Part shown: piece after piece, positions 25,599 through 44,847 of the stretch
How the letters are laid out: the number at the start of each line of letters is the position of its first letter
Position numbering within the stretch: position 1 is the first letter of the stretch
Origin: Acidimicrobiia bacterium
GTDB lineage: Bacteria; Actinomycetota; Acidimicrobiia; IMCC26256; PALSA-610
Length of the DNA stretch: 64,000 nucleotides
Direction: 5' to 3'
Assembly: GCA_052148155.1 (NCBI GenBank)
Contig: JBKQIY010000019.1
Location: forward strand, 21,964-85,963
Translations under genes and position numbers: made by a program
Notes under the pieces: model-generated
Told to the model about the DNA's origin: nothing
Seen by the model: the letters and a program-made list of their open reading frames with translations, nothing else
Database searches by the model: none

Positions 25599-25610
25599 TA
25601 GTGCCGAAAC

Positions 25611-26744
25611 ATGCGCAGCGGATCATTTTCACCAATGATTCCGCAGCTGGGCTCGCGTGACCGAGCATCACCCGGGCACGCCCAGGGGAACCTGCTCCCA
25701 CCCGAGGCCTACCACGACCAGGGCTGGTTCGAGCGGGAGCAGCGGCAGCTATTCAGCTGCCGCTGGGCCCTCATCGCAGACCTAGAACAGCTCGCGGAGC
25801 CGGGCGACTACGTCACGGCGACGGTCGGCCTGGCCCCCCTGGTGGCACTGCGAGGCGAGGACGGACAGCTACGGGCGTTCCACAACCTGTGCCGGCACCG
25901 GGGCATGGTCCTCCTTCACGATGCCGGCAACGTGTCCCGCCGTATCGACTGCGCCTACCACCAGTGGTGCTACGCCCTCGACGGGTCGCTGGCCTTGGTG
26001 CCCCAACGCCGGGAGCAGTTCCCCGATCTCGTCCCCCTGAGTTGGGGACTGCTTCCGGCGTCGGTCGCCGTCTGGGAGGGGATGGTCTTCGTCCACCCCG
26101 ATCCCGCGGCCGAACCGCTGGACGAGGCGTTGCGCGGCGTGTCCGAGAACCTCGGCAGCCACCGGCCCGGGCTCCTCCGGCAGGTGGCGATCGACCATAT
26201 CGACGCCCACTGCAACTGGAAGCTCTTCGTCGAGAACCACGTCGACGTCTACCACCTCTGGTACCTCCACGCCCACAGCCTCGGGGACTTCGAGCACCCC
26301 CGGTTCGAGTACCGGCAGGTCGGCGCCAACTGGACCAGCTACGAGCCGCTGCGCACCGGGGACCTGAGCGCGGCCGCCCTCACGAAGGGGACGACGACCA
26401 TCGCCCACCTGGACGAGCGTGACCGCCTCGGGCTGGGGGCGCACATGGTGTTCCCCAACCTCCTCATGGCCACCGCGGCTGAGTTCTTCGCCACCTACGT
26501 CGCCCAGCCGGTGGCGCCCGACCACACGGTGATCGAAATCCGGGTCCGAGCCGAGGCAGACGCCGACGCCGATGCCCTGCTCGATGCTCTCCGATCCTTC
26601 ATCGCCGAGGACATCGTCGCCTGCGAGGGGGTCCAGGCGGGGGTGCGCTCGCCGGCGTTCGCGGTCGGCCCGCTGGCCCGCGACCTCGAACTGCCGATCA
26701 CCAACTTCCACACCAGCCTGCTGGCCCGCCTCGGTGCGACGTGA
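25611..26744 (+). CDS. Rieske non-heme iron oxygenase alpha subunit (choline monooxygenase/N-dealkylase-like)
   Basis: CRH...CAYH Rieske ligands; ENHVDVYHLWYLH and EDIVACE mononuclear Fe motifs. Confidence 0.92.
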   Translation: MRSGSFSPMIPQLGSRDRASPGHAQGNLLPPEAYHDQGWFEREQRQLFSCRWALIADLEQLAEPGDYVTATVGLAPLVALRGEDGQLRAFHNLCRHRGMVLLHDAGNVSRRIDCAYHQWCYALDGSLALVPQRREQFPDLVPLSWGLLPASVAVWEGMVFVHPDPAAEPLDEALRGVSENLGSHRPGLLRQVAIDHIDAHCNWKLFVENHVDVYHLWYLHAHSLGDFEHPRFEYRQVGANWTSYEPLRTGDLSAAALTKGTTTIAHLDERDRLGLGAHMVFPNLLMATAAEFFATYVAQPVAPDHTVIEIRVRAEADADADALLDALRSFIAEDIVACEGVQAGVRSPAFAVGPLARDLELPITNFHTSLLARLGAT

Positions 26745-26781
26745 CCGCGGCGGCCCGCCCGAGCGGCGGGGAGCGAGCGTC

Positions 26782-27384
26782 GTGATTGTGCCCGAACTCG
26801 TCCACGGCGCCTGGGCCCGGAAGTCGGTGTCGGTCGGGGGCGGGCCGCACTTCGAGACCCAGCGGGTGGTGTGGCTGCAGAGCGGCACCCGCTACGCCGA
26901 CATCCGGCTGCCCTTCCACCCGGCCGCGGACCAACGCTGTTTCGCGGGGTCGAGTGGCTGGGACGGCGACCGGTACCGCTGGACGCACCGTCTCGACCTG
27001 GCCGAGGTCGACTCGCCGCCGGCCGACGACATCGCCGACCTGATATCGGAGAACGGGGTCCTCGTCGAACGGGGCATCTTCCCCTCCGCCTCGGGAGCGG
27101 TCGCCTACGAGGAGGTGTGGGTCAGGCTCGCCGGCGCCGAGGGAACGTGGCAGGCAGTGGACGCACGCGACGGCTGCCTCGTGCGCGTCGGTGACCACGC
27201 CATCACCGTGGTCGACCGCCGCAGGGACGGGGGGCGCTTCGCAGCCAGTTACCGGGTGCGCAGCTCGACGGGCTGGAAGGTGGAACTCGCCCTGGGTGAT
27301 GCCACCGGCCTGCCGCTGCCCGGAGGGACCGAGCCCGGCTGGCTGGTCGTGCACGCCGGTGACGTCGGCGCGGTGACGGCGTGA
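26782..27384 (+). CDS. hypothetical protein, Hri1-like beta-barrel
   Basis: YADIR, CFAG, WTHRLD, VERG, YEEVW pattern resembles fungal Hri1; stop overlaps next start (GTGA). Confidence 0.6.
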   Translation: MIVPELVHGAWARKSVSVGGGPHFETQRVVWLQSGTRYADIRLPFHPAADQRCFAGSSGWDGDRYRWTHRLDLAEVDSPPADDIADLISENGVLVERGIFPSASGAVAYEEVWVRLAGAEGTWQAVDARDGCLVRVGDHAITVVDRRRDGGRFAASYRVRSSTGWKVELALGDATGLPLPGGTEPGWLVVHAGDVGAVTA

Positions 27385-28175
27385 GGACGCGGCGTTGGAC
27401 CGAGGAGGCCTGGCCGGATCTCGCCGACTTGGGATCGGGCGGCGGCTTCGAGGTGGGGCTCGTTCCCGTCGGCGCGACCGAACAGCACGGACCTCACCTG
27501 CCGACCGGTACCGACACGATCATCGCCGTCGGGCTCTGCGAGCGGGCCTCGGCGCTCACCGGAGCGCCGGTCCTGCCTGCCATACCTGTGGCCTGCAGCT
27601 ATGGCCACGGCACCCGCCTGCCGGGAACGCTCTCCCTCACCCCGGAGCTGTTGGCCGCAGTGGTCCGCCAGTACGCCGAATGGGCGGCAACGTCGGGGCT
27701 GACGCGGCTGCTGTTCGTCAACGCCCACTTCGGCAACTCCGCCGCGCTCGGCATCGCCACCGACCATCTCCGGCTCTTCCGTCCCGACCTGCGGGTCGGT
27801 GTCCTCGACTGGTGGGCGCTCGACCCCGAAGTCGCACGCGAGACCCTTGCCGAAGGCCCGGACGTGCACGCCCATCGGGCCGAGACGTCGGTCATGCTCG
27901 TCCTCGCGCCGGAGCTGGTCCGGCTCGACCGGGCGGCAGGGGCGGACGATCCCGACCGCACCGCCGGGCTCGTCTTCCGCTACACGGTGCCCGCCCTGTC
28001 CCTCAACGGCGTGACCGGGCGGCCGTCGGAGGCCAGCCGGGACCTGGGGGAGCGGTTGGTTGACCTGACGGTCGCCGCGATCGCGGCAGCGATCGAGCGC
28101 GGACGCCAGGAGAAGCCACCGCTCGGCGCCGCCGCGGCGCCGGCTCTCGACAAGGAGCAGTCATGGACACCGTGA
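27381..28175 (+). CDS. creatininase-family amidohydrolase
   Basis: GATEQHGPHLPTGTD, NAHFGN, DVHAHRAETS metal-binding motifs. Confidence 0.92.
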   Translation: MRTRRWTEEAWPDLADLGSGGGFEVGLVPVGATEQHGPHLPTGTDTIIAVGLCERASALTGAPVLPAIPVACSYGHGTRLPGTLSLTPELLAAVVRQYAEWAATSGLTRLLFVNAHFGNSAALGIATDHLRLFRPDLRVGVLDWWALDPEVARETLAEGPDVHAHRAETSVMLVLAPELVRLDRAAGADDPDRTAGLVFRYTVPALSLNGVTGRPSEASRDLGERLVDLTVAAIAAAIERGRQEKPPLGAAAAPALDKEQSWTP

Positions 28176-29539
28176 AGCCCATCGACGAAACGCACGTGGC
28201 GCTGGCGGCCCAGTTGGCTGCTGATGGCGTCCAGTACGTGCTCGGTGGCTGGATCGACGTCAACGGTCGATCGAAGTCCAAGCTCGTCCCCATCTCCCAC
28301 CTGCCCAACCTCCTGGCGGGGTCGGAGCGCTACACGCCCCGCGGAATCGACGACCTCGGGCGCATGACGCCGAACGAGGACGAGTGCGTCGCCGTTCCTG
28401 ATCTGGCCACGTTGCGGGTCTGCCCGTGGGACCGGCGGGTGGCGTGGACGGCGGCCGACCTGTGGTTCGGTGGCGACCATCCGTTCGCGCTGTGCAGCCG
28501 GTCGGTGCTGAAGCGTCAACTGGCGCTGGCTGCCGCCGAAGGCGTCGTGTTCAACCTGGGCGTGGAGACCGAGCTGTTCGTGTTCCGGCCGGAGTCGCTC
28601 GAGCGGACCGACGGCTACCTCGAACCCCTGACGCACAGCGGCAAACTTCGGCCCACCCAGGCCTACGACGCCGAGTCGGTCATGGATGCGCTGCCGTTCC
28701 TCGATCCCATGGCGAGGTACATGACCGAGACGGGATTCGACATCTTCAGCCTCGACAGCGAGGGCGGAGACGGGCAGTACGAGTTTGACTTCGACTACGC
28801 CCCGGCCCTGCAGATGGCCGATCAGCTGACGTTCTTCCGGCTCATGGTCAAGCAGGTGGCAAAAGAGGTCGGGCTGATCGCCACCTTCATGCCCAAGCCC
28901 TACACCGACGCGTGGGGCTCGGGCCACCACTTCAACATGAGCCTGGAGGACGCCGAGACAGGCACCAACCTGTTCCGGGACAACGACGACGCCCGCCGCA
29001 GGGGGTGGAGCAAGGCCGCCTACGCCTTCATGGCCGGGATCATCCGCCACGCCCGGGCCATCGCCGCGGTCGCCAACCCCACGGTGAACTCGTACAAGCG
29101 CCTGACGCCCCGCCTCAGTGACGGCTCGGTCTCGTGGGCGCCGATCCACGCCGCCTACGGCGACAACAACCGCTCCTGCATGTTGCGGCTGCCGCGCAAC
29201 CGGCCGGCGATCGAGAACCGGGCGGTGGACGCAGCGGCGAACACCTACCTCGCCGCCGCGTTCATGCTCGCGGCGGGCCTCGAAGGCATCCATCTCGGCC
29301 TCGACCCGGGTGAGCCGGTCGAGGACCTGACCTACGACTGGGCCGATCGGGCCGACATGGTTCGGCTGCCCCGGAACCTGCTGGAGGCGGTCGACGCCTT
29401 CCGGGAGGACCCACTCGTCCACGAGGTGTTCCCCGCCGAGTTCGTCACCGCCTACGCCGACATGAAGCAAGGGGAGTGGGACGACTACCACCGCCAGGTC
29501 GGCGAGTGGGAACGGTCCAAGTACTTGCTGGCCTTCTGA
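28163..29539 (+). CDS. glutamine-synthetase-like gamma-glutamylamide ligase (GmaS/GlnT-like)
   Basis: GVETE, EGGDGQYE, TFMPKP, GSGHH, NSYKRL, NNRSCMLR, ENR; WAP instead of EAP; AAGGAG RBS. Confidence 0.88.
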   Translation: MDTVKPIDETHVALAAQLAADGVQYVLGGWIDVNGRSKSKLVPISHLPNLLAGSERYTPRGIDDLGRMTPNEDECVAVPDLATLRVCPWDRRVAWTAADLWFGGDHPFALCSRSVLKRQLALAAAEGVVFNLGVETELFVFRPESLERTDGYLEPLTHSGKLRPTQAYDAESVMDALPFLDPMARYMTETGFDIFSLDSEGGDGQYEFDFDYAPALQMADQLTFFRLMVKQVAKEVGLIATFMPKPYTDAWGSGHHFNMSLEDAETGTNLFRDNDDARRRGWSKAAYAFMAGIIRHARAIAAVANPTVNSYKRLTPRLSDGSVSWAPIHAAYGDNNRSCMLRLPRNRPAIENRAVDAAANTYLAAAFMLAAGLEGIHLGLDPGEPVEDLTYDWADRADMVRLPRNLLEAVDAFREDPLVHEVFPAEFVTAYADMKQGEWDDYHRQVGEWERSKYLLAF

Positions 29540-29572
29540 GCCGATCCGTCACCAACACCTAAGGAGTCCCCC

Positions 29573-31228
29573 GTGTCCACACCGACGGCATCCCGAGCAG
29601 CCCTCCTTCGAGGAGGTCGCCCCCGCCTGTCCTGGCGGGTCGCCGCCGTGGCTGCGACCGTGGCGCTGGCGGCGGCGGCGTGCAGCAGCTCATCGAAGTC
29701 GGGGAGCTCAGCCCCGAGCACCTCAAGCGGCGCCAAGGTCACCGCGCCGGCGGTGGTCAACATCGGGTACGTCGCCGACATGGGGGTGCCCGACCCGGAC
29801 ATCTTCTACCAGGTCGAGGGCAACTCGGTGATCACCAATGTGTACGAGGGACTCGTCCAGTACGCCAACAACAGCACCAAGATCGTCCCCAGCCTGGCGA
29901 CAAGCTGGACCGTCTCGCCCGACCAGAAGACCTACACGTTCCAACTCCGCCCCCACGTCATGTTCCACGACGGCAGTGGGCCGATGACGTCGAAGGACGT
30001 CGCCGCCAGCTTCAGGCGCCGCTCGGCGCTGGGAGCGACGTCCCCGCCCGGCTACATGCTCCAGTACGTCGCCGGCTACGACACGTCGAACCCGAACGTG
30101 CTCGTGATCCATCTCACGCAGCCGGTCGCCCCCTTCTTGGACTATCTGGCCGCGCCCTACGGACCCAAGGTGGAGGACGCGGCCGGGTTGGCGGCCCACG
30201 CCGGCACCGACCACGACCAGACCTGGTTCAAGACCCACGACCTCGGCACCGGGCCGTACACGATCACCCAGTTCGTGCCCGGCGACCACTACGTGTTGAC
30301 CTCGTTCCCGCAGTGGTGGGGTGGCGTCCCGCAGGTCACCGAGATCCACATCTCGATCCTGCCAGATGTCGCCACCCAGCAGCTCGAGCTGCAATCCGGT
30401 CAGCTGCAGATGATCCTCCACGGCCTGTCCGCCCAGGACGAGGTGACCTACGAGCACAACCCCAAATACCAGATCGTCCGCTTCCCGGCCAACCAGAAGC
30501 TGCTCCTGGCCATCAACATGCACCACGGGATCTTCCAGAGTCTGGCCTTGCGCCAGGCCCTCCGGCAGGCGATCGACAAGGCGCAGATTGTCAGTGCTGT
30601 CTACGGCCAGGACGCCACCGTCTCCAACCAGATCTATCCGACCGGCGAACTACCGCTGCCGTTGGGGGCAGATGACCCGACCTACGACCCGAGCGTCCTC
30701 GCCAACCTGGTCAAGGGCCTCAGCGACAAGCACGTCGACTTGGCCTACACCAACGACGATGCCCGCAACCAGCGGGTGGCGGAGATCATCCAGACCGAGC
30801 TGCAGTCGGCGGGGCTCGATGCCACCGTCCGGGGCATCCCACTGACCCTTGCGTACAGCTTGTCCTCGGAGCCGTCCCAGCGGCCCGACCTGCTGTTGAC
30901 GACCACGAACCCCGACGCCTCCGCGCCCGACACGTGGGTCCGCATCTACCTCCACACCGTCACCTCCACCGACGGCTCGCTCAACTACCTAGACTGCTCG
31001 GTACCGGCCGCCGATCACGCCATGGACACCGGGCTGCACCTGACCACGCCCAGCGCGGTCGCAGCGGCCTACGGCCAGGCCGGCGACGACATCTCCGCTT
31101 CGGGCTGCATCGACAACATCGCCGACGTGCAAGACGTCTTCGTGGCCGCCGCCGGCTACAGCAACTGGTACCACCAGCCTCCGGATCTGCTGACCCCGAA
31201 GTTCGGGCTCCTGAAGCTCAGCTCATGA
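29573..31228 (+). CDS. ABC transporter substrate-binding lipoprotein, family 5 (Opp/Dpp)
   Basis: Lipobox AAAC; NVYEGLV, LATSWTVSPD, FHDG, GTGPY; AAGGAG RBS. Confidence 0.92.
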   Translation: MSTPTASRAALLRGGRPRLSWRVAAVAATVALAAAACSSSSKSGSSAPSTSSGAKVTAPAVVNIGYVADMGVPDPDIFYQVEGNSVITNVYEGLVQYANNSTKIVPSLATSWTVSPDQKTYTFQLRPHVMFHDGSGPMTSKDVAASFRRRSALGATSPPGYMLQYVAGYDTSNPNVLVIHLTQPVAPFLDYLAAPYGPKVEDAAGLAAHAGTDHDQTWFKTHDLGTGPYTITQFVPGDHYVLTSFPQWWGGVPQVTEIHISILPDVATQQLELQSGQLQMILHGLSAQDEVTYEHNPKYQIVRFPANQKLLLAINMHHGIFQSLALRQALRQAIDKAQIVSAVYGQDATVSNQIYPTGELPLPLGADDPTYDPSVLANLVKGLSDKHVDLAYTNDDARNQRVAEIIQTELQSAGLDATVRGIPLTLAYSLSSEPSQRPDLLLTTTNPDASAPDTWVRIYLHTVTSTDGSLNYLDCSVPAADHAMDTGLHLTTPSAVAAAYGQAGDDISASGCIDNIADVQDVFVAAAGYSNWYHQPPDLLTPKFGLLKLSS

Positions 31229-31263
31229 CAGAAAGGCAACAGCCGCGGGGAACATAGCCGTCT

Positions 31264-31298
31264 CGCGCCGGAGATCGCGCGGTTTCACCGGCGCGTTT
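31264..31298 (+). terminator. GC-rich hairpin followed by TTT after the substrate-binding protein gene
   Basis: CGCGCCGGAGA-10 nt-TCACCGGCGCG (1 mismatch) then TTT. Confidence 0.5.
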
Positions 31299-31374
31299 CC
31301 GTCGAGGTCATCGCCTCGCATCGTCTGAACCGGCCGGGGCGGATCCGCCCCGGCCCGAGGGCGTCGCGCCGGCG

Positions 31375-33381
31375 TTGGCCGGCGTCGCGCCGGGGTCGGC
31401 GGTCGAGTCGACGTCGGGCGGTGCCGGGCCACCGTCGGTGGTCGACGTCAACCAGTTGCACGTCGAGTTCCAACGCGGCGGCCGCGCCGTGCAGGCCGTG
31501 CGCGGCGTGGACCTTCAAATCGCCCGCGGCGAAATCCTCGGCCTGGTCGGCGAGTCCGGATCGGGAAAGAGTGTGCTGGGCCTGTCGCTGCTCGGGTTGT
31601 TGCCGGTCGAGCCCCCACCCATGATCGAAGGCAGCGCCGTCGTGTGCGGGGTCGACATGGTGCGGGCATCGGCCCGCGAGCGTCGCCTGGTGCGTCGAGA
31701 TCACCTGGGGGCCGTGTTCCAGGATCCCATGACCTCGCTCAACCCGACCATGCGCGTCGGGCGTCAGGTCGCCGAGGCGGCCGGCACCGAGTCGGAGGCG
31801 ATCAGGCTGCTCGACTCCGTCGGTGTGCCGGAGCCGCGGCGACGGCTCCGGGCCTATCCCCACGAGCTGTCGGGCGGTCTCCGCCAGCGGGTGATGATCG
31901 CCATGGCGGTAGCGGGCAGCCCATCGCTTGTGATCGCCGACGAGCCCACGACCGCCCTCGACGTCACCGTGCAAGCCCAGATCCTCGAGTTGCTCCGCCA
32001 CCTGTGTGACGAGACCGGGTGCACGTTCTTGCTCATCACGCACGACCTCGGTGTCGCCGCCCAGATCGCCGACCGCATCGCCGTGCTCTACGCCGGTCGT
32101 CTGGCGGAGGTGGGTGCCGCCAGAGACGTGCTCCAACGGCCGGCACACCCTTACAGCGTCGGGTTGCTGCGATCGCGCCTGACCCTCGCGGCTCGGCGGG
32201 AGGGACCGCTGCCGACCCTGGCGGGCGAGCCACCCGACCCCCGCGCACTCCCTCCGGGCTGTCCGTTCGGGCCTCGGTGCGGGCTGCACCAAGATGCCTG
32301 CGACGCCGAGCTCCCCACGCTGGTGGCGGCTGGATCTCATCCCGGACTCGCGGCCTGCCGGCGGCTCGGCGTCACCGACGAGCGCGCGGTCGTCAACATC
32401 GAGCGGTGGCCGGCGGTGAGGCGCTCGACGACCCCGGCGGTGACCCTGACCGGCGTCGAAAAGCACTTCACGGTGCGCAACGGCTTCCGGGGCCGGGAGC
32501 GGCTCCAGGCGCTGCGAGGTGTCGACCTGGCCGTCGAGGAAGGGGAGTCCGTCGCTCTTGTCGGCGAAAGCGGATGCGGCAAGTCGACGTTGCTTCGGAC
32601 GGTCGCCGGCCTGTTGAAGCCCGACGCCGGAACCATCACGCTGGGAGCCGGGGCCCGGCCGCAGATGGTGTTCCAGGACGCCGGCGCGTCGCTCACCCCG
32701 TGGATGACCGTCGGCGAGCTGGTCGGCGAACGCCTGCGCAGCGAGGGCGTGGGCCGGGCGCAACGCGCCGTTCGGGTCCGCGACGCCCTCGCGCTCGTCG
32801 GGTTGCCAGAAGAGGTGGCCGGTGCCAAAGCGGCGCAACTGTCCGGCGGCCAGCGCCAGCGGGTGGCACTGGCCCGGGCCACGATCGTGCCCCCTGACGT
32901 GCTGCTGTGCGACGAGCCCACCAGCGCTTTGGATGTGTCGCTCGCCGCCACCGTGCTCAACCTCCTCGGCCGCATCCGCCGCGAGCTGGGGATGGCAATG
33001 CTCTTCGTCACCCACGATCTCGGAGCGGCGCGCGTGATCGCCGACCGCATCGCAGTGATGTACCTCGGGCGCATCGTCGAGATCGGCCCGTCGGAGGGGA
33101 TCGCCTCCTCGCCGCGCCACCCCTACACCCGGTCGCTGCTGGCCGCTGTTCCCGGCGTCGGCATCCTGCGGTCGCCGCTGGAGGGTGAGCCGGCGAGCCC
33201 GTTGCACCCGCCCTCGGGATGCGCCTTCCATCCGCGCTGCCCCATCGCCCTCGAGGAGTGCGCGTCCGCGGAGGTCCCCCTCACCGAGGTGGGAGGCCGG
33301 ATGGTCGCCTGCGTACGCGCCAGCGAACTGGCGGCGCGTGACGAAGCCACCGGATTGGTAGACGCCAGTGGCGATCGCTGA
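31375..33381 (+). CDS. fused double ABC ATPase (OppD/OppF-type)
   Basis: GESGSGKS and GESGCGKS Walker A; LSGG twice; DEPT twice; two oligo_HPY Cys motifs; start uncertain. Confidence 0.93.
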
Positions 33382-35244: not shown

Positions 35245-35246
35245 GC

Positions 35247-35738: not shown

Positions 35739-35781
35739 GTATGGGGGAGCGTATCGAAGCGCCGCTCCCGGCGCGCCCGAC

Positions 35782-35797
35782 GAAACGTGGTCTTCAC
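35782..35797 (+). promoter_or_regulatory. possible GlnR-type box
   Basis: GAAAC-N6-TTCAC upstream of the carboxylase start; resembles GlnR b-site/a-site spacing. Confidence 0.35.
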
Positions 35798-35841
35798 AGC
35801 CGGGCGCCCACCGGCCGATCGAGCACGACGAGGGGACGTTC

Positions 35842-38800
35842 ATGTTCACTAAGGTCCTGGTCGCAAACCGCGGGGAGATCGCCTGTCGGATCCTTCGCAC
35901 CCTCCGTGCCATGGCGATCTCGTCCGTGGCGGTGTACACCGACGCCGATGCCGGATCTCTGCACGTTCGGATGGCCGACGAGGCGATCCGCATCGGTGAA
36001 GGTCCGGTGGCCCTCAGCTACCTCGACCAGACCCTGATCCTCGACGTCGCCACCAGCCTCGGCGCTGAGGCCCTGCACCCGGGCTACGGCTTCCTTTCCG
36101 AGAACGCGGCGTTCGCGTCGGCGTGCGGCGCGGCCGGCGTGACCTGGATCGGCCCCGACCCCGACCACATCCGCCGGTTCGGCGACAAGCACGAAGCCCG
36201 AGCGTTGGCCGCCGACCTGGGGGTCGGACTGCTGGCGGGCACGGGGCTGTTGGACTCGGTCGACTCCGCTGTCGACGCCGCCTCCCGGATCGGGTATCCG
36301 GTGATGCTCAAGGCGACCGCCGGTGGCGGAGGTATCGGGATGCAACGGTGCGACGGCCCGGCAGCCCTAGCCCAGGCTTTCGAGACCGTCACCCGGCTGG
36401 CGCGCAACCACTTCGGTGAAGGTGGCGTCTTCATCGAACGGTTCGTGGAGCGGGCACGCCATGTCGAGGTGCAGCTGTTCGGCGCCAACGGCGAAGTCGT
36501 CGCCCTCGGTGAGCGGGACTGCTCGGCGCAACGCCGTCACCAGAAGGTCATCGAGGAGGCGCCCCCCGTCGGGCTGCCGGCCGAGCTGCTCGCCTCACTC
36601 AGAGCCGACGCGCTGCGGCTCGGGCGGGCCGTGGGCTACCGGTCGGCGGGCACGGTCGAGTTCGTCGTCGACGTCGAACGCCTCGACGCAGCCTTCCTCG
36701 AGGTCAACACCCGTCTCCAAGTCGAACACGCCGTCACCGAGCTGGTGGCTGGCATCGACCTGGTGGAGTGGATGGTCCTGGAGGCCGCGGGATCGCTCGA
36801 TGATCTCGGCGAACGGGCGACGAGGCTCGTCGCCCGGGGAGCGGCGATCGAAGCGCGGGTCTACGCCGAGGACCCTGCGCACGGGAACCGCCCACAGAGC
36901 GGCGAGCTCGTCGGGCTGGCGTTCCCGGCGGGAGTGCGGGTCGACACCTGGGTCGAGGCCGGCACCGAGATCAGCTCCTGGTACGACCCGCTGGTGGCCA
37001 AGGTCGTGGTGCACGGCGAGGACCGGGGCGCCGCGGTCGAGGCCCTCGACCGGGCCCTGACCGACGTCCGCGTCGACGGCGTGGCGACCAACGTCGGGCT
37101 CCTGGCGGCGGCGGTGGCCGACGGCCGATTTGTCGACGGGGGCTACACCACCTCCTTCCTCGACGCCGTCGCCTACCGGCCGGCAACGATCGAGGTGCTC
37201 GCCGGCGGGATGCAGACGACGGTGCAAGACCATCCCGGCCGCCTCGGCTACTGGGCGATCGGCGTTCCGCCATCGGGACCCATGGACGACCTCGCCTTCC
37301 GGCTGGGTAACCAGCTCCTCGGCAACCATCCGTCAGCGGCCGGGTTGGAGGTCGTCCTGGCCGGGCCCACCCTGCGGTTCGACACGCCGGCGCTCGTGGC
37401 GATCACCGGGGCGGCAATGGACGCCACCGTCGACGGCGTGGCCGTGCCCGGCTGGACGGCGCTTGCTGTGGCCGCCGGGTCGACACTTTCGATCGGTTCG
37501 CCGACGGGGGCCGGGTGCCGGGCCTACGTATGCGTTCGGGGCGGATTGGACATCCCGATGTACCTGGGGAGCCGGTCGACGTTCCTCCTCGGCGGGTTCG
37601 GAGGGCACCGAGGGCGCGCCCTCGCACCGGGCGACGTCTTAGTCTTCGGCGCCGTCACGCCCGTCGCCGAGGCAGGTGACGTCGTCCCCGCCGCGCTCGT
37701 ACCGGTCTACGGCCGCGAGTGGCACGTCGGGGTGGTGGACGGGCCCCACGGGGCGCCGGACTTCCTGACACCGGCGGGGATCGACGCGTTCTTCGCTGCG
37801 GCCTGGCATGTCCATCACCATTCCGACCGCACGGGGGTGCGGCTGGTAGGGCCGACTCCCGAGTGGGCCAGGCCGGACGGCGGCGAGGCCGGGCTACACC
37901 CGTCCAACATCCACGACACGACCTACGCCGTCGGAGCCGTCGACTTCACAGGGGACATGCCGGTCGTGCTCGGGCCGGACGGGCCGAGCCTCGGCGGGTT
38001 CGTGTGTCCGGTCACGACCGTCAGTGCCGACCGGTGGAAGCTCGGGCAGCTGACCGCCGGAGACCTGGTCCGGTTCGTCCGCCTCGATCCGGTGGCGGCG
38101 CTGGCGCTGATGGAGGCTCAGGAGGAGGAGCTGGCGACCCTCAACGCAGCGGGGGCGTCCGTGGTGGCATCGGTGGGGGCCCCGCCGCGGGAGGTCGAGG
38201 CCGCGTGGGACGTCGAGGCGGCGGAGGTCCGCCCAGCGGGGGGCGCGGCCGCACGTGGCTTCGCCGGCGCCAACCCAGTCCTGCGGAGCCGGGTGTTGGA
38301 CCCGGACACGACGGACAGGCCGTCGGTCACATACCGACGGTCCGGCGACCGTTGCGTGCTCGTCGAGTACGGCGACAACGTGTTGGACCTGGCGTTGCGG
38401 TTCCGCATCCATGCCTTGATGGAGGCTCTGGGCGCGGCTCGTATCCGCGGCATCGAGGAACTGTCCCCTGGCATCCGGTCGTTGCAGGTGCGCCACGATC
38501 CGCGGGTGCTCCCCACCGCGCGGCTCATCGATGCGCTCGAGGCGGTCGAGGTCAAGCTCCCAGCGGCGACCGACCTGGTCGTGCCGAGCCGGATCGTCCA
38601 CCTCCCGCTCTCGTGGGACGACCCCGCGACGCGCCTGGCCATCGACCGCTACATGAAGGTCGTCCGTGACGACGCCCCCTGGTGCCCGTGGAACATCGAG
38701 TTCATCCGCCGCATCAACGGTCTGGACACCGTGGACGAGGTGCGCGAAATCGTGTTCGCGGCGAGCTACGTCGTCCTCGGCTTGGGTGACGTGTATCTCG

Positions 38801-39543
38801 GAGCGCCCGTGGCGACCCCCCTCGATCCGCGCCACCGGCTGGTCACGACGAAATACAACCCGGCGCGGACGTGGACCCCGGAGAACGCGGTGGGCATCGG
38901 TGGCGCCTACCTGTGCGTGTACGGCATGGAAGGCCCGGGCGGTTACCAGTTCGTCGGGCGCACGGTACAGATGTGGAACCGCTACCGGCGCACGCCGGAC
39001 TTTCCCGGATCACGGCGCTGGCTCCTGCGCTTCTTCGACCAGTTGCGGTTCTATCCCGTAGGCGCCGACGAGCTGCTCGACCTGCGTTGCGACTTCGCCC
39101 TCGGGCGCCACCAGCTGGAGATCACCGAGACCGAGTTGTCGCTGGCGGAGTACCGCCGGTTCCTGGCCGACGAGAGCGGAACGATCGATGCCTTCAAGCT
39201 GCGCCAGCGGGCGGCCTTCGATGCCGAGCGACAGCGCTGGGAGGCCAGCGGGGAGCTCGCCCGGATCGCCACCGTCCCCGAGGACGACGGCGACGCCGAC
39301 GCGGTCGAGGCGACGGTCCCGGACGGCGCCATCGGCGTCTCCACACCGGTCCAGGGTGTCGTCGCCCAGGTCGTCGCCGTCGGTGACGAGGTCGAGCAAG
39401 GCGCGGCGGTGGTCGTCGTGGAAGCCATGAAGATGGAGACCGCGGTCCCCTGCCCGATGTCCGGCACCGTCACCGAGGTCCGCTGCCGGCCCGGCCAGAT
39501 CGTGACCGCAGGCCAGACCCTTATCGTGTTGGCGGGCCCATGA
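35842..39543 (+). CDS. uca: urea/guanidine carboxylase (biotin-dependent), Asp-type
   Basis: VLVANRGEIA, HPGYGFLSEN, EVNTRLQVEH, HPSNIHD...VDFTGD, GGYQFVGRT, EAMKME biotin site; ATG 35842. Confidence 0.96.
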   Translation: MFTKVLVANRGEIACRILRTLRAMAISSVAVYTDADAGSLHVRMADEAIRIGEGPVALSYLDQTLILDVATSLGAEALHPGYGFLSENAAFASACGAAGVTWIGPDPDHIRRFGDKHEARALAADLGVGLLAGTGLLDSVDSAVDAASRIGYPVMLKATAGGGGIGMQRCDGPAALAQAFETVTRLARNHFGEGGVFIERFVERARHVEVQLFGANGEVVALGERDCSAQRRHQKVIEEAPPVGLPAELLASLRADALRLGRAVGYRSAGTVEFVVDVERLDAAFLEVNTRLQVEHAVTELVAGIDLVEWMVLEAAGSLDDLGERATRLVARGAAIEARVYAEDPAHGNRPQSGELVGLAFPAGVRVDTWVEAGTEISSWYDPLVAKVVVHGEDRGAAVEALDRALTDVRVDGVATNVGLLAAAVADGRFVDGGYTTSFLDAVAYRPATIEVLAGGMQTTVQDHPGRLGYWAIGVPPSGPMDDLAFRLGNQLLGNHPSAAGLEVVLAGPTLRFDTPALVAITGAAMDATVDGVAVPGWTALAVAAGSTLSIGSPTGAGCRAYVCVRGGLDIPMYLGSRSTFLLGGFGGHRGRALAPGDVLVFGAVTPVAEAGDVVPAALVPVYGREWHVGVVDGPHGAPDFLTPAGIDAFFAAAWHVHHHSDRTGVRLVGPTPEWARPDGGEAGLHPSNIHDTTYAVGAVDFTGDMPVVLGPDGPSLGGFVCPVTTVSADRWKLGQLTAGDLVRFVRLDPVAALALMEAQEEELATLNAAGASVVASVGAPPREVEAAWDVEAAEVRPAGGAAARGFAGANPVLRSRVLDPDTTDRPSVTYRRSGDRCVLVEYGDNVLDLALRFRIHALMEALGAARIRGIEELSPGIRSLQVRHDPRVLPTARLIDALEAVEVKLPAATDLVVPSRIVHLPLSWDDPATRLAIDRYMKVVRDDAPWCPWNIEFIRRINGLDTVDEVREIVFAASYVVLGLGDVYLGAPVATPLDPRHRLVTTKYNPARTWTPENAVGIGGAYLCVYGMEGPGGYQFVGRTVQMWNRYRRTPDFPGSRRWLLRFFDQLRFYPVGADELLDLRCDFALGRHQLEITETELSLAEYRRFLADESGTIDAFKLRQRAAFDAERQRWEASGELARIATVPEDDGDADAVEATVPDGAIGVSTPVQGVVAQVVAVGDEVEQGAAVVVVEAMKMETAVPCPMSGTVTEVRCRPGQIVTAGQTLIVLAGP

Positions 39544-41321
39544 CCGGGTCGTTCACGCCGCTCGGCCCCGGGCCGGCAGGGATCGCGGAGCTGCGAGCCG
39601 ATCTCGCGGCTGGTGCGACGACCCCCGCCGCGGTCGTCAAACGGGCCTACGCGGCCCTCGCCCAACTGGAGTCGGCCGTGATCAACTTCGTGCCGGAGGA
39701 GACCGCGCTGGCCCTCGCCGATCGGGACCTTGATGGCCTGCCGCTGGGAGGCGTCCCCTTCGTCATCAAGGACAACATCGACGTCGCCGGGGTGGCCACG
39801 ACCGCCGGCTGCCCGAGCTTTTCGTATCTGCCGTCCGAGTCGGCCACAGTGGTGCAGCGCCTCGTCGAGGCCGGGGCCATTCCCGTAGCCAAGACCAACC
39901 TGGATCAGTTCGCCACCGGTCTGGTGGGTACCCGCAGCCCCTACGGAATCCCGCTGAACCCCTTCGATCGCACGCGGGTGCCCGGTGGTTCGAGCTCGGG
40001 ATCGGCGGTGGCGGTCGCCTGCGGCGCCGTCCCGTTCGCGCTGGGGACGGATACGGCCGGGTCGGGGCGGGTGCCGGCGGCCTTCACGGGCACGGTCGGG
40101 CTCAAGCCCACCCGAGGGTGGCTGAGCACCAAAGGTGTCGTACCTGCGGTGCGGACACTCGACTGTGTGTCGATCTTCGCCCTGTCGGTCGAGGACGCGT
40201 GGGCGGTCGCGGTGCTCGCCGCGGCGTTCGACCCCGCCGACCCCTTCAGCCGCCGCCGACCGGCCTGGCATCCCCTCCGGTCGCCCGGCCCCCGCGTCGG
40301 TGTCGGTCGCGGGATCGACCTGGCGTCCGTCCTCGACCTGCCGTCCGCCCTCGCCCAAGCCGCGGGGAGCGCCGTCATACAGGAGATCGAGGTCGCGCCC
40401 CTGCTGGAGGCCGGGCGCCTTCTCTACGGCGGGCCGGCCGTCGCCGAGCGCTTCGCCGCCGTGGGCGACTTCCTGGCCGCTGACCCGCCCGGCGTCGATC
40501 CCACCGTCCGAGAGATCATCCTCGACGCCAACCGGTGGACCGCGTCGGATGCCGCCGTCGCCGGTTACGAGCTCGCCCACCTCCGGCGCGTCGCCGAGGC
40601 GATATGGGAGGACATCGACGTGCTCGTCTTGCCGACCGTCGCCCGTCACCCCACCCTCGCCGAAGTGGCGGCCGATCCCGTCGGCGTCAACGCCGAACTG
40701 GGGACCTACACCACATTCGCCAACCTGCTCGACCTGTGCGCGGTCGCGGTGCCGACCGGCCTTCGAAGCGGGTTGCCGCAAGGTGTGTGCGTCCTGGCGC
40801 CGGCGTGGGCAGACGCCCTTGCCGGGGCGGTCGCGTCGCAGATCCACCTGGCGACTGGGGGCCTCCGGGGAGTCGTCGGCCGTCCGGTCGCCGACACTGG
40901 CTGGGCACCGCCCAGGACCAGTGGAGGCATCGACCTGGCCGTGGTCGGTGCGCACCTGGCAGGCCAGCCGCTGCACCATCAGCTCACGGAGCTCGGCGCC
41001 GTGTTCGTCGCCGCCACCACGACAACGTCCGACTACCGCCTTTACGCCCTGCCCGACACCGTCCCCGCCAAACCTGGCCTGGTCAGAGTCGCCGCGGGCA
41101 CGGGCCGGGCCATCGAGGTCGAGGTCTACCGTCTCGACGCAGCCGGCTTTGGTCGGTTCGTGGCCGAGGTGGCGCCCCCGTTGTGCATCGGCACCGTCCG
41201 CCTCCCGTCCGGTCCGGTCGCCGGCTTCTTGTGCGAGCCGCTCGCGGTGGAGGGCGCGATCGACATCAGCGAGTACGGGGCCTGGCGCGCCTACCGCTCG
41301 GTTCGCCCCGCACACCCCTGA
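39540..41321 (+). CDS. atzF: allophanate hydrolase
   Basis: KDNID, GGSSSGS, GTDTAGSGRVPA amidase signature; C-terminal VVGAHLAGQPL domain; ATGA overlap with uca. Confidence 0.95.
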   Translation: MTGSFTPLGPGPAGIAELRADLAAGATTPAAVVKRAYAALAQLESAVINFVPEETALALADRDLDGLPLGGVPFVIKDNIDVAGVATTAGCPSFSYLPSESATVVQRLVEAGAIPVAKTNLDQFATGLVGTRSPYGIPLNPFDRTRVPGGSSSGSAVAVACGAVPFALGTDTAGSGRVPAAFTGTVGLKPTRGWLSTKGVVPAVRTLDCVSIFALSVEDAWAVAVLAAAFDPADPFSRRRPAWHPLRSPGPRVGVGRGIDLASVLDLPSALAQAAGSAVIQEIEVAPLLEAGRLLYGGPAVAERFAAVGDFLAADPPGVDPTVREIILDANRWTASDAAVAGYELAHLRRVAEAIWEDIDVLVLPTVARHPTLAEVAADPVGVNAELGTYTTFANLLDLCAVAVPTGLRSGLPQGVCVLAPAWADALAGAVASQIHLATGGLRGVVGRPVADTGWAPPRTSGGIDLAVVGAHLAGQPLHHQLTELGAVFVAATTTTSDYRLYALPDTVPAKPGLVRVAAGTGRAIEVEVYRLDAAGFGRFVAEVAPPLCIGTVRLPSGPVAGFLCEPLAVEGAIDISEYGAWRAYRSVRPAHP

Positions 41322-41349
41322 CTGCCGTCATTTCCTCGGGGGAGCGCCG

Positions 41350-41740
41350 CGAACCTCCTGGCCGTCGCCTCGACCAGATTGCGGACGTGGCGGCGCGTCG
41401 CGCATCGTCGAGTGCTGATGCTGGCGTTCCCTGCAGGAGCGGTGAGCCAACCTTGTCGGCGAGACCCGGGCAGTGTCCTTGGCGCCGAAGATACGCAGCT
41501 GTTGCGGCGCCGAGCCGATGAACGTTGGTCCGGCGGCCTCGACCTGTTCTGCGAACTCGTGGCGCTCGGCAAGGCCTCCGAAGCCCGGGTGGCTTGCGCG
41601 CCGCGCTCAAGCGCGGCGGCGATGATGGCCTGCGCGTCGAGAGAGCTCGCGGCGGCTGGGTGACCGCCGGATGCGGCCCGTTTCATCGGCGAGTCGAGCA
41701 GGCCGCGTCTCCGTGTCGGCGTCCGAGTACACCGCTGGTC
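41350..41740 (-). pseudogene. decayed N-terminal remnant of a second urea/guanidine carboxylase
   Basis: Across frameshifts: AVYSDAD...LADE..RI / SLDAQAIIAAA..GAQA / HPGFGGLAERHEFAEQVEAAGPTFIG..PQQLRIFGAKDTAR, collinear with the BC domain of 35842..39543. Confidence 0.85.
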
Positions 41741-42346
41741 TCAGGGGCCGGTGACAACGACGCCGACCGGGGTTGGGTCGAATCCGTTGCAGGGATTGTT
41801 GATTTGCGGACAGTTGCTGATGAGCACCAGCACGTCGCGCTCGGCCCGGCATACGACACGTAGGCCAGGTGCCGAGATCCCGTCAACGATTCCCATGGTG
41901 CCGTCGGCTTCGACGGGCACGTTCATAAACCAGTTGATGTTGCTCACGAGGTCGCGTTTTCCGAGGTCCCACTTCGCACCTTCGAACAGGAAGTTCTCGA
42001 CGCACGCGTGTTGATGCTTCGTGTGAAACCCGTAGCGCAGCATGTTCGATTCTTGACTGCAGGCGCCGCCGATCGTGTCGTGTCGGCCGCACGTATCGTC
42101 GACGATCTCGAGCATGGGATTTCCTTCATTCGACCGAAGCACGGATCCGGTCTTGAGGAAGATGTTTCGTTGCGCCGCCATCGTTGTCTGCGCGCAATAC
42201 CGTTCTGCGTGATTCCGCGCGTCGTAGAAAAGGCAATCGACGGCCTGGTTTCCGGCGAGATCGGTAATCGTGATCGTTCCGCCCGCGGGGACGATGCCCG
42301 ACCACGGCGCGCGTGGCGGAACGATGTCGTCGATGAGCCCGGTCAT
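41741..42346 (-). CDS. cgdB: urea carboxylase-associated DUF1989 protein (carboxyguanidine deiminase subunit)
   Basis: GNQAVD, GRHDTIGGAC, HACVENF, NINWFMNVP, SNCPQINNPCN. Confidence 0.9.
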   Translation of the reverse strand: MTGLIDDIVPPRAPWSGIVPAGGTITITDLAGNQAVDCLFYDARNHAERYCAQTTMAAQRNIFLKTGSVLRSNEGNPMLEIVDDTCGRHDTIGGACSQESNMLRYGFHTKHQHACVENFLFEGAKWDLGKRDLVSNINWFMNVPVEADGTMGIVDGISAPGLRVVCRAERDVLVLISNCPQINNPCNGFDPTPVGVVVTGP

Positions 42347-43188
42347 CTGTTCCTCATCCCCGCCGAGTCGTGTCCGAGGTTCCAGTCGTCGGTGTTCGCG
42401 TAGGCCCGCTGCGTCTCTGGTGTGGCATGGCGCAGCGGGTCATGGTGTCCCGTCGGGTCGCCGCGCCACGCGGTGAGGCGCAACGGTGTGCAGTTATATT
42501 GCTCGCGCGTGTCGAGCACGTGAGGAACGTTCGCGACCGACACGATCGCGTTGAGCTCGAATCGAACCTCAACGAATGCGCCGGCGGTGGCCGGAACCGC
42601 GTCGAGGTGAAGGTTGCCGTCTGAATCGACGCGCACGCCCTTGAAGAATGCGAGGGTCGGGGGGAGATCACGCCGACCCAAACCAAATTTTGCGAGGGCC
42701 ACGATGAGGCGATCGCGGGCGCTTGGGTATGGGCCCTCGACCCGCCCGTCGCCGTACTTGGTGTTGTGGTCCGCCTGATTCGGTGCACCGCAGATCGTGT
42801 CGTGCCGGCCAGTGCTGTCCTCGGTGACCGCGGCCAGCACGCGGCCGCGGTCGGACAGCAGAAGTGATCCTCGGCCGAGGTACATCTGCCACTGCACCTT
42901 GGTGGTGTCGGCGAGGTTCAGCCGTTCGCTCGGAAGGTCGGCGTGGTGTAGTGCGACGTGAGCGCAGGCGTCGCCGGCGAGGTCCGTGAAGCGCAGCACG
43001 CTGGCACGCGGCAGTTCGTGGATGGAGTACTTGCCGGCGTCGAGGACCTCGTCCCAGAGCACGTCGTCAGGAGCGACGCCGGTTGGGAGGTTTGGCGCGG
43101 CGGACGCGGGCAACGTCGGCATGCCGAGCACTTTGGTTTCGGCCTGCGAGCGGGCATGGTCGCGAGCGCCGTGGGTCGTTGCCGTCAT
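42343..43188 (-). CDS. cgdA: urea carboxylase-associated DUF1989 protein (carboxyguanidine deiminase subunit)
   Basis: GARDHAR, ERLNLADTTKVQW, SDRGRVL, RHDTICG, NVPHVLD; ATGA overlap with cgdB. Confidence 0.88.
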   Translation of the reverse strand: MTATTHGARDHARSQAETKVLGMPTLPASAAPNLPTGVAPDDVLWDEVLDAGKYSIHELPRASVLRFTDLAGDACAHVALHHADLPSERLNLADTTKVQWQMYLGRGSLLLSDRGRVLAAVTEDSTGRHDTICGAPNQADHNTKYGDGRVEGPYPSARDRLIVALAKFGLGRRDLPPTLAFFKGVRVDSDGNLHLDAVPATAGAFVEVRFELNAIVSVANVPHVLDTREQYNCTPLRLTAWRGDPTGHHDPLRHATPETQRAYANTDDWNLGHDSAGMRNR

Positions 43189-43231
43189 GTGGGGGATTGG
43201 GTCGGGTCGGCCGGATACCATGGTCACCATT

Positions 43232-43250
43232 ATCTATCGATCGATCGAAA
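43232..43250. promoter_or_regulatory. AmtR-like operator
   Basis: ATCTATCGATCGATCGAAA = CTATC-N4-GATcG between divergent cgdA and amtR; near the CTAT-N6-ATAG / CTGTC-N4-GACAG AmtR boxes. Confidence 0.65.
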
Positions 43251-43275
43251 AGTCCAAGTCGGGTCGGTATCCAAG

Positions 43276-43941
43276 GTGAAGGGCCGACCGGGACGGCCGC
43301 GCGCTTCGAACGGCGAGCCGCCGGTCGACACGCGCGAAGCGATACTCGATATCGCGGCGGAGCTCTTCGCCAACAACGGTTACGCGGCGACCGGCACCCG
43401 TGAGATCGCGACGATGGTCGGCCTGCGGCAGGCATCGCTGTTCCATTACTTCGCCCGGAAAGAGGACCTCTTCGCCGAGTTGCTGGATCGGACCGTGTCG
43501 CCGGCTTTGAGTGCGACGGCGTGGCTGATGCATCACCCGGGTCGCCCCGAGATTCGCCTGTACGCGCTGGCGCATCATGACGTCACGAACCTGTGCGGCA
43601 GCCGTCACAATCTTGCGGCACTGCAGCTGCTGCCCGAAGCACGGGACGTTCGCTTCGCGAAGTTTTGGGCGAAGCGTGCGCGGTTGCGGGGTCGATACCG
43701 TTCTTTGATCAGGGACGCCGATCAGGCCGGACGGGTCATCGACCGGCCTCTCGAGATGGCCACCGATCTCGTGTTCGGGGCGGTCGAGGCCACGATGACC
43801 TGGTCGGCGCGATCACGCCGCGCCTCGACTGCGCGCACAGCCGATGCGGTTGCGTCCGCTGCGGTGCGAGGTGTACTAGTCCGGCCCCCCAGCCCCGAGC
43901 GACTGCGGGCGGCGGCGAATCGCCTCAGAAACGAGGCGTGA
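43276..43941 (+). CDS. amtR: TetR family nitrogen repressor, AmtR-like
   Basis: GRPR..., REAILDIAAELF..GYAAT.TREIA..VGLRQASLFHYF..K...LL..TV.P resembles the corynebacterial AmtR N-terminus. Confidence 0.78.
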   Translation: MKGRPGRPRASNGEPPVDTREAILDIAAELFANNGYAATGTREIATMVGLRQASLFHYFARKEDLFAELLDRTVSPALSATAWLMHHPGRPEIRLYALAHHDVTNLCGSRHNLAALQLLPEARDVRFAKFWAKRARLRGRYRSLIRDADQAGRVIDRPLEMATDLVFGAVEATMTWSARSRRASTARTADAVASAAVRGVLVRPPSPERLRAAANRLRNEA

Positions 43942-44835: not shown

Positions 44836-44847
44836 AAGGAATCCTTA

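Follow-up and report, generated by a model that had tools for sequence, protein, structure and literature searches.

We analyzed a 64,000-nucleotide stretch of DNA from a soil bacterium of the Acidimicrobiia (the window, meaning this whole stretch) and propose that the gene cluster at 25611-43941 is a nitrogen-scavenging system in which the guanidine carboxylase pathway is joined to an oxidative front end for N-substituted guanidines, a reading drawn from sequence comparison to which we give a probability of about 0.5. The core of the cluster encodes a guanidine carboxylase (Gca), the two subunits of carboxyguanidine deiminase (CgdA and CgdB), and the allophanate hydrolase AtzF. The front end encodes a Rieske oxygenase alpha subunit, a small protein related to yeast Hri1 (HRI1-like), a creatininase-family hydrolase (Creat), a glutamine synthetase (GS)-like ligase, and an ATP-binding cassette (ABC) importer. 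In other genomes the Rieske and HRI1-like genes are tight partners of the guanidine genes, and some of the lineages have the Creat, GS, and ABC genes along with them. An oxygenase-extended guanidine carboxylase operon has been known since 2025, and the version with Rieske, HRI1-like, Creat, and GS genes would be a new form of it. The gene map is based on an open reading frame (ORF) listing combined with Pfam and NCBIfam scans of the window's proteins.

The guanidine carboxylase core and its known extension

The carboxylase gene (35842-39543, plus strand), whose annotated family is urea carboxylase, encodes a full-length protein with biotin carboxylase, carboxyltransferase, and biotin carboxyl carrier domains. 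It matches TIGR02712 with 1713.5 bits (cut-off 1303.85) over model positions 1-1200 of 1201 and carries six Pfam domains. In the available part of Palatinszky et al. (2024, PMC11410670), the residue at K. lactis position 1330 separates the two enzyme types, Asp marking guanidine carboxylases as opposed to urea carboxylases, in addition to the conserved Asp 1584, and the portion of a 2025 review at hand (PMC12186494) gives the same Asp criterion. We aligned the window's carboxylase to the K. lactis structures 3va7 and 5i8i, with a numbering offset of 593 fixed from both chains. The protein has Asp at the 1330 position (GAVDFTGD, compared with GAINFTGD and N1330 in K. lactis) and keeps D1584 (GLGDVYLG). 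Because Asp occupies both signature positions, and by the family membership of its proteins, the Gca-CgdAB-AtzF core is assigned to the guanidine pathway.

The remaining core proteins also score above their equivalog cut-offs. AtzF (39540-41321, plus strand; PF01425, PF21986) reaches 664.7 bits against TIGR02713 (cut-off 511.05), CgdA (also UAAP1; 42343-43230, minus strand, with an alternative start at 43188) 276 bits against TIGR03425 (205.95), and CgdB (also UAAP2; 41741-42346, minus strand) 322.9 bits against TIGR03424 (284.7). An earlier reading of this DNA, made from its letters alone (the sequence-only reading), had taken carboxylase, CgdAB, and allophanate hydrolase for a guanidine-type pathway, which these scores and the two Asp residues bear out. 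As far as the available text of PMC11410670 goes, all four proteins and the Asp signature are common to the window and to the pathway of Pseudomonas syringae and ammonia oxidizers, whereas the window has TetR and Lrp regulators in place of a guanidine-I or guanidine-II riboswitch, and its operon is split, rearranged, and accompanied by the relic of a second carboxylase. No arginase-family (agmatinase) gene was detected in the window's genome (G000) at E<=1e-10, so no hydrolytic route for guanidino groups was seen there. As a separate observation, the carboxylase ORF of one related locus (L018, 5010-7085) consists of carboxyltransferase domains only, without a biotin carboxylase or carrier domain.

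A published extension of this pathway provides the closest parallel to the front end. According to the accessible part of Sinn et al. (2025, PMC12508155), Vreelandella boliviensis has two additional genes, mgdH and mgdL, in its operon for guanidine carboxylase. MgdH is a 2-oxoglutarate (2-OG)/Fe(II) dioxygenase that hydroxylates methylguanidine, and MgdL is a beta-barrel lyase that together with MgdH demethylates it; catalysis by MgdL involves D49 and R51, and Glu, Asp, and Trp surround the guanidinium. In that operon, as described in the same portion of the paper, and in the window alike, an oxygenase gene and then a small beta-barrel gene lie inside a gca-cgdAB-atzF operon with an ABC importer, and the Asp-x-Arg pair of MgdL has a counterpart in an invariant D40-x-R42 of the HRI1-like family. 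By this analogy the window's pair appears to match MgdH/MgdL in position and logic, with a Rieske enzyme as the hydroxylase. The two systems differ in that the window adds a creatininase-like hydrolase and a ligase resembling GmaS, uses another transporter type, and has no riboswitch; moreover, the MgdH/MgdL hosts are halophilic Gammaproteobacteria, whereas the host here belongs to a high-G+C actinobacterial lineage. The sequence-only reading had proposed an undescribed pathway, a claim that the 2025 publication of a dioxygenase-lyase extension for methylguanidine overtakes, judging from its available part. Our literature search found no paper in which the guanidine carboxylase pathway is linked to a Rieske, HRI1-like, or creatininase-family protein or to a GS-like ligase. 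A tblastn search of plasmids with CgdB returned 242 records, and no listed organism came from the genera named in the MgdH/MgdL paper.

The Rieske-HRI1-like pair and the genes that follow it

The HRI1-like gene (26782-27384, plus strand) starts with GTG, 8 nt downstream of GGGGAG, and encodes 200 residues matching PF16815 with 37.4 bits (cut-off 27). Its AlphaFold2 (AF2) model (pLDDT 89.5) is all-beta and forms a double beta-barrel. Foldseek places yeast Hri1 (3rby) at the top (TMq 0.73, E 1.9e-06), and each half resembles lipocalin and fatty-acid-binding protein (FABP) barrels. Among 16 diverse homologues, down to 31% identity, 14 residues are invariant (G9, W11, R13, E25, D40, R42, F54, G56, D83, E96, G98, E111, W113, and P178), including a polar set made up of D40-x-R42, three Glu, one further Asp, and two Trp. 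We propose, by comparison with MgdL, that this protein may act as a hemiaminal (N-hydroxyalkyl-guanidine) lyase, and we put the chance that the two proteins are homologous at roughly two in three. The MgdL precedent thereby likely gives a role to what the sequence-only reading had left as an unknown protein, and one that it did not foresee.

The family is rare. A search of 5.8 billion proteins gave 38 matches, profile searches of that set with HRI1-like alignments returned only relatives of Acidimicrobiia/Actinomycetota type, and three loci came from scanning 185,579 species genomes. There is no second HRI1-like gene in the window's genome. Searching plasmids by tblastn returned two short Streptomyces paralogues whose contexts are unrelated, the only matches in a phylum sample were of half length and came from one genus, and comparison with the ESM Atlas gave unnamed clusters only. 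In one locus (L046, 8055-12548), an HRI1-like gene of 63% identity lies between S15 peptidase-like and N,N-dimethylformamidase-beta-like genes, with no Rieske gene.

The Rieske oxygenase gene (25611-26744, plus strand; PF00355, PF00848) encodes a protein with a CXH-X17-CXXH motif. Its residues C94, H96, C114, H117, H215, H220, and D334, which we take to be the ligands of the Rieske cluster and the mononuclear iron, are invariant in 22 aligned sequences. The AF2 model (pLDDT 89.5) is confident except for residues 1-25, and orthologues align only from residue 28, so the true start may lie downstream of 25611. The nearest solved structures found by Foldseek are CntA (TMq 0.72-0.76), 3n0q, and the stachydrine demethylase Stc2 (0.75-0.79); CntA is the best sequence match as well, at a distance (22-24% identity to CntA and Stc2 in structural alignment), and the score on the GbcA equivalog is 109 bits against a cut-off of 670. 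CntA, Stc2, and GbcA share with the window's protein an alpha-only Rieske fold with the full cluster and iron ligand set, and they hydroxylate a carbon next to a cationic nitrogen, after which the C-N bond is cleaved. CntA-type enzymes function without a beta subunit, and Pfam scans detected no beta-subunit gene in the cluster. The gene partners differ, being guanidine genes here and not betaine or carnitine genes. The modeled structure thus supports grouping the Rieske protein with enzymes that oxidatively cleave C-N bonds next to a cationic nitrogen, and we propose, again by analogy, that it hydroxylates a carbon attached to a guanidinium nitrogen.

Additional Rieske genes were noted in several places. 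The window's genome (G000) encodes four more paralogues on other contigs. Two paralogues occur in each of L033, L050, L052, and L061; in L033 they flank cgdAB, and in the other three they stand in tandem before the HRI1-like gene, with the copy more like the window's first. About 1 kb upstream of the HRI1-like gene of L057 lies a fragment (3-515) of a reductase of the ferredoxin-NADP reductase (FNR) type (FAD_binding_6, NAD_binding_1), which could be the kind that a Rieske enzyme needs.

The creatininase-like gene (27381-28175, plus strand) follows the HRI1-like gene and encodes a clear member of the metal amidohydrolase family PF02633 (209.3 bits). Its closest solved relative is creatinine amidohydrolase (best PDB match, 83.7 bits). 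In a comparison with creatinine amidohydrolase and the family members MftE and IolN, it scores under every equivalog cut-off, including those for creatininase (TIGR04448, 112.1 bits against 235) and MftE (132.5 against 172), and its assignment accordingly stays at the family level.

Gamma-glutamylation pathways for amines are known from the Puu, Ipu, and aniline systems. The GS-like ligase (28163-29539, plus strand; PF00120) resembles GmaS, with 438.8 bits against TIGR03105 (cut-off 469.6) and glutamate--methylamine ligase 9qur (287.5 bits) and RhGmaS 7cql (261.9 bits) as best PDB matches. We mapped onto it the RhGmaS residues named in the available part of Wang et al. (PMC7948447), where chain index equals the paper's number plus 20. 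As far as that part of the paper names them, D177, E179, E186, R312, R317, Y147, and K30' are kept, and Thr and Trp occupy the positions of GS Asp50' and of the flap Glu, as in GmaS, so that both proteins keep the catalytic residues and are without the ammonia-binding residues of GS. The amine pocket differs from that of GmaS in two replacements, Q175 by Ser and N188 by Asp, and both Y174 and W189 are Phe. Because the GmaS residues are kept and the amine pocket is changed, the residue pattern identifies a putative gamma-glutamyl-amine ligase rather than an ammonia-assimilating GS, probably one acting on an amine other than plain methylamine. It also differs from GmaS in falling under the TIGR03105 cut-off and in having no N-methylglutamate pathway genes beside it. 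The sequence-only reading had cast the Rieske enzyme as an oxidative C-N cleaver and the GS-like protein as an amine ligase; the structural neighbors CntA and Stc2 favor the first assignment and the residue pattern the second. In L031, genes for a Peptidase_C26 protein (gamma-glutamyl hydrolase type) and a short-chain dehydrogenase/reductase (SDR) come after the GS-like gene.

The importer genes complete the front end on the plus strand. They encode a family-5 solute-binding protein of the peptide/nickel/opine type (29573-31228; PF00496, 229.6 bits), a fused double ABC ATPase with two ABC_tran and two oligo_HPY domains (31375-33381), and two permeases (33368-34249 and 34249-35244; PF00528, PF12911, PF19300). 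The binding protein reaches no equivalog, and its PDB matches are unspecific (AapF, DppA, NikA). The sequence-only reading had the importer bring in a larger N-alkylated or cyclic guanidino compound and the creatininase-like enzyme hydrolyze an amide or ring, two roles that are conjectural. In L018, an NMT1/TauT-type ABC system (12828-15526) follows the GS-like gene in place of the peptide-type one.

Recurrence with the guanidine genes and competing explanations

Among 401 genomes of the window's class, the window's own included, the HRI1-like gene occurs in 8 and CgdB above its cut-off in 10; all 8 lie within those 10, and none of the 391 others has the gene. Relatedness inflates this association, as, of the seven genomes other than the window's own, five come from a single family and four from a single genus, with three families represented overall. 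For synteny, the window's proteins were placed by tblastn on flanks of about 10 kb in both directions, or as far as the contig reached, in 30 related loci (12 genome-derived and 18 from metagenome contigs), 28 of which are informative upstream of the HRI1-like gene; the other two have <300 nt there. The Rieske gene stands directly upstream of the HRI1-like gene in 22 of the 28. The sequence-only reading had suggested a check of whether the upstream genes recur with the carboxylase, and by these counts they do.

Wherever the contig reaches far enough in the eight class-sample genomes, the HRI1-like gene adjoins cgdAB-gca-atzF. The full order cgdA-cgdB-gca-atzF-Rieske-HRI1 is co-directional in L018, L029, L030, L031, and L032; L019 has cgdA-cgdB-gca-atzF-HRI1 with no Rieske gene detected in a frameshifted assembly, L033 has cgdA-cgdB-Rieske-HRI1, L020 has atzF-Rieske-HRI1, and the contig of L034 begins at the Rieske gene. 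Metagenome contigs add cgdB-Rieske-Rieske-HRI1-Creat-GS (L050), cgdA-cgdB-Rieske-HRI1 (L055, ending just past the HRI1-like gene), cgdB-HRI1-Creat (L047), and Rieske-HRI1-Creat-GS (L045), the last being the window's closest relative with 84, 72, 87, and 90% identity for the four proteins. Because it recurs in other genomes, the arrangement exceeds chance. Where the HRI1-like and creatininase-like genes both occur, the latter is directly 3' of the former, except in the g4 loci, in which a reverse-strand amidase gene lies between them. The sequence-only reading had treated everything from the Rieske gene to the importer as one upstream module; the close partnership holds for Rieske and HRI1-like, and Creat, GS, and ABC genes accompany them in only part of the loci. 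Extra genes in the one-genus loci represented by L031 (7840-8649, 10336-11877, and 14063-15618) include a metallo-beta-lactamase (MBL)-fold hydrolase gene between atzF and the Rieske gene, a reverse-strand amidase gene after the HRI1-like gene, and the Peptidase_C26 and SDR genes mentioned above.

Several observations weigh against an oxidative front end to guanidine breakdown. Demethylation of methylguanidine alone leaves the GS-like and creatininase-like enzymes without a role, and the binding protein, being of the peptide/nickel/opine type, does not point to a small guanidine as far as its sequence matches go. The hydroxylase differs in type from the 2-OG/Fe(II) dioxygenase MgdH. Pfam scans detected no reductase partner for the Rieske protein in the cluster, which also sets it apart from CntA, Stc2, and GbcA; proteins with a Fer2 domain are encoded on other contigs of the genome only. 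An Rfam search of the window gave no family at gathering score, guanidine riboswitches included, and at E<=1 the sole match between 21 and 46 kb was to an unrelated small RNA model (E 0.39). The HRI1-like gene has no adjacent Rieske gene in L011, L019, L046, L047, L057, and L060, and two class-sample genomes with CgdB (G381 and G403) have plain TetR-cgdAB-gca-atzF operons without the extension.

The module also occurs apart from the guanidine genes. In five loci (L009, L010, L011, L053, and L059), the order is TetR-(Rieske)-HRI1-Creat, and the sequence covered contains no gene for the carboxylase, CgdAB, or AtzF. Upstream of the HRI1-like gene, that sequence amounts to 8-10 kb for L009, L010, and L059 and to about 3-4 kb for the other two. 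Downstream coverage is little or nothing in two of them, as L009 ends inside the creatininase-like gene and L011 about 0.8 kb after it; L011 is also without a Rieske gene. In L010 (with frameshifts), L053, and L059, the creatininase-like gene is continued by GS and ABC genes, and the flanks of L059 are housekeeping genes. The three metagenome-assembled genomes (MAGs) behind L009-L011, whose completeness is not given, have neither CgdB above the cut-off nor a full carboxylase; what matches the carboxylase model in them is of the acyl-CoA-carboxylase type only, and each has one agmatinase-like arginase-family gene below the equivalog cut-offs. One locus of the five, L010, comes from an unpublished genome (G787) that is also one of the three MAGs, and the pattern is the same when it is left out.

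These loci bear on an explanation centered on alkylamines, which we consider unlikely. The GS-like enzyme would make a gamma-glutamyl alkylamide such as gamma-glutamylmethylamide, the Rieske enzyme would hydroxylate its N-alkyl carbon, the HRI1-like protein would split the resulting stable N-(hydroxyalkyl)amide into glutamine and an aldehyde, and the creatininase-like enzyme would remove leftover amide; the link to guanidine would be that alkylguanidines passing through Gca, CgdAB, and AtzF would yield alkylamine. Aniline and isopropylamine catabolism are known to follow such a scheme, in which a GS-like ligase is combined with an oxygenase and a hydrolase. The explanation gains from the closeness of the GS-like protein to glutamate--methylamine ligases with kept catalytic residues, from the translational coupling of the HRI1, Creat, and GS genes, and from the loci just described, since Rieske-HRI1-Creat-GS-ABC forms a stand-alone TetR-controlled operon in L053, L059, and the frameshifted L010, and L009 and L011 show the beginning of the same TetR-headed run. 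It is opposed by L032, L033, and L055, in which Rieske-HRI1 stands with cgdAB and no co-directional Creat-GS beside it (although L055 is cut short and the opposite strand of L032 carries a GS-like gene, distant at 45%), and by L047, in which the HRI1-like gene follows cgdB directly. The changes at Q175 and N188 of the methylamine pocket also speak against it, and a family-5 binding protein would be unexpected for methylamine.

It is rather unlikely that the genes are neighbors without a shared pathway, the Rieske-to-ABC genes degrading an unrelated compound (peptide-like, opine-like, or a quaternary amine) and traveling along on a mobile block. The block does differ from its flanks in third-position G+C, as detailed below, its transporter type is unspecific, the module stands without carboxylase genes in the five loci above, and the relatives CntA, Stc2, and GbcA act on betaines. 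This explanation does not fit the confinement of all eight HRI1-like genomes to the 10 CgdB genomes, the position of the genes within the operon itself, with cgdB or atzF on one side and downstream genes on the other, as seen in three families and on metagenome contigs, or the change of transporter type (NMT1-type in L018) while the enzymes stay.

Improbable, too, is a creatinine/creatine route, in which the creatininase-like enzyme would open a cyclic acylguanidine and the Rieske and HRI1-like proteins would strip its carboxymethyl and methyl groups to give guanidine. Creatinine amidohydrolase is the hydrolase's closest solved relative, and its gene has a fixed place after the HRI1-like gene outside the g4 loci. 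In the available part of PMC12508155, creatinine is named as the only known source, an abiotic one, of methylguanidine. On the other side stand the hydrolase's score far under the creatininase cut-off, a family that also includes peptidases, deformylases, and a C-C hydrolase, a GS-like ligase left without a role, and Pfam scans that found no creatinase or sarcosine oxidase gene in the cluster. Least probable is that the HRI1-like protein is a non-enzymatic structural or substrate-delivery partner of the Rieske oxygenase, standing in for a beta subunit or a binding protein: its gene usually adjoins the Rieske gene and a lipocalin/FABP-like barrel is typical of small-ligand binders, but six loci have no adjacent Rieske gene, one of them with the HRI1-like gene directly after cgdB, CntA-type enzymes need no beta subunit, and the invariant D-x-R, Glu, Asp, and Trp set resembles an active site.

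Architecture, history, and proposed pathway

The sequence-only reading had described a co-directional, partly translationally coupled run ending in Lrp, carboxylase, and AtzF, next to cgdAB and amtR. All of these genes are present, and the coupling is reflected in four overlaps of stop and start codons, at 27381-27384, 28163-28175, 33368-33381, and 34249. The Lrp/AsnC-family gene (35247-35738; PF13404, PF01037) does not belong to the co-directional run, as it is encoded on the minus strand and diverges from the carboxylase gene. The cgdBA genes are convergent with atzF, and divergent from cgdA lies a regulator gene on the plus strand (about 43258-43941, the start being approximate). Its product is of the TetR family by TetR_N (PF00440) only, with a best NCBIfam match of 38.7 bits, which leaves the amtR label at the family level. 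Homologues of this regulator (30-60% identity by tblastn; L009-L011, L032, L033, L053, L059, L063, and L064) in other loci adjoin cgdA or precede the Rieske gene.

Just before the window's Rieske gene, at 25522-25599, are two tandem 39-nt copies, 82% alike and comparatively A+T-rich, which are a possible operator or promoter region. A scan for promoters and terminators gave a site count no higher than in shuffled sequence. Farther upstream, about 2.7 kb (22900-25600) hold no coding-like ORF or Pfam match, the long ORFs there being Arg-rich nonsense. At the other end, a gene for a TauD/TfdA-family 2-OG dioxygenase (43945-44835) and an IclR regulator gene, together spanning 43945-45636 on the minus strand, abut the TetR gene; no counterpart of the TauD-family gene was found in the 12 genome-derived related loci.

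The cluster is a mosaic. Third-position G+C is 0.86-0.91 for the genes at 25611-41321 and 0.70-0.81 in the flanks, cgdA and cgdB included; the Rieske-to-atzF block is thus foreign in composition, from a donor richer in G+C, and stands beside native cgdAB and TetR genes. Directly downstream of cgdB is a decayed carboxylase relic (41466-41735, minus strand) covering biotin-carboxylase N-domain residues of about 30-120, with one stop codon (TGA) and a scrambled middle. In a profile search of the genome's contigs it matches TIGR02712 positions 29-119, and by tblastn it is 39.6% identical to the window's intact copy and 45% to the carboxylase of L032. The native TetR, cgdA, and cgdB are likewise closest to L032 (60, 57, and 77% identity), where gca-atzF-Rieske-HRI1 follow co-directionally. 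On the simplest reading, an incoming block with its own gca-atzF and Rieske-HRI1-Creat-GS-ABC-Lrp genes replaced the native downstream genes, and from its sequence the block looks recently acquired. A repeat search found no flanking repeats marking the block edges. In two soil-metagenome runs from a single study, contigs span the two edges with no differences (X2 over 24643-25715, X1 over 40923-42322), with similar depth in block and flanks, and give no sign of a chimeric join; they are not independent, as one run may be the source sample.

From the protein families, signature residues, folds, and gene order, we infer a substrate, an order of steps, a lyase role, and regulator ligands as follows. 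The ABC system would import an N-substituted guanidine, and the CntA/Stc2-like Rieske monooxygenase would hydroxylate the carbon on the guanidinium nitrogen to give a hemiaminal. The simplest target would be the methyl group of methylguanidine, and the alpha-carbon of a larger N-alkyl group could also serve. The HRI1-like barrel would then split the unusually stable hemiaminal into free guanidine and an aldehyde, as MgdL does after MgdH. For the steps after that, family membership and signature residues show that guanidine is carboxylated by Gca, carboxyguanidine is deiminated to allophanate by CgdAB, and ammonia and CO2 are released by AtzF, the three together yielding three ammonia. The TetR and Lrp regulators would replace the guanidine riboswitches seen elsewhere.

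Methylguanidine would suffice as the substrate for loci without Creat and GS. Because a creatininase-like hydrolase and a gamma-glutamyl-amine ligase are coupled to its Rieske and HRI1-like genes, the window's version is suggested to handle something larger or to capture an amine co-product. The creatininase-like and GmaS-like enzymes would probably extend the system to a guanidino compound that is cyclic or bears an amine, one resembling creatinine or agmatine; alternatively, the pair would serve to capture the amine co-product as a gamma-glutamyl amide. It is doubtful, yet of interest for its consequences, that the HRI1-like family acts as hemiaminal lyase with the Rieske, GmaS-like, and creatininase-like enzymes in a gamma-glutamyl-assisted route, so far undescribed, in which the amine of a compound such as agmatine would be protected by glutamylation, guanidine would be cut off oxidatively, and the free guanidine would pass to the carboxylase pathway. 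Such a route would replace ureohydrolases, which the window's genome is without as far as the arginase-family search goes, and would give the yeast Hri1 fold its first biochemical function.

Free and methylated guanidines have only recently been seen as nitrogen sources, and few guanidine-releasing enzymes are known. If the proposed pathway is correct, a Rieske enzyme, unrelated to the 2-OG-dependent type, would be the second kind of oxygenase to have joined this operon in the same role, and a small, poorly understood protein family with the yeast Hri1 fold would gain a catalytic role. The attached ligase and hydrolase would point to larger natural guanidino substrates, and the TetR and Lrp proteins may be sensors of guanidine derivatives where riboswitches are absent.

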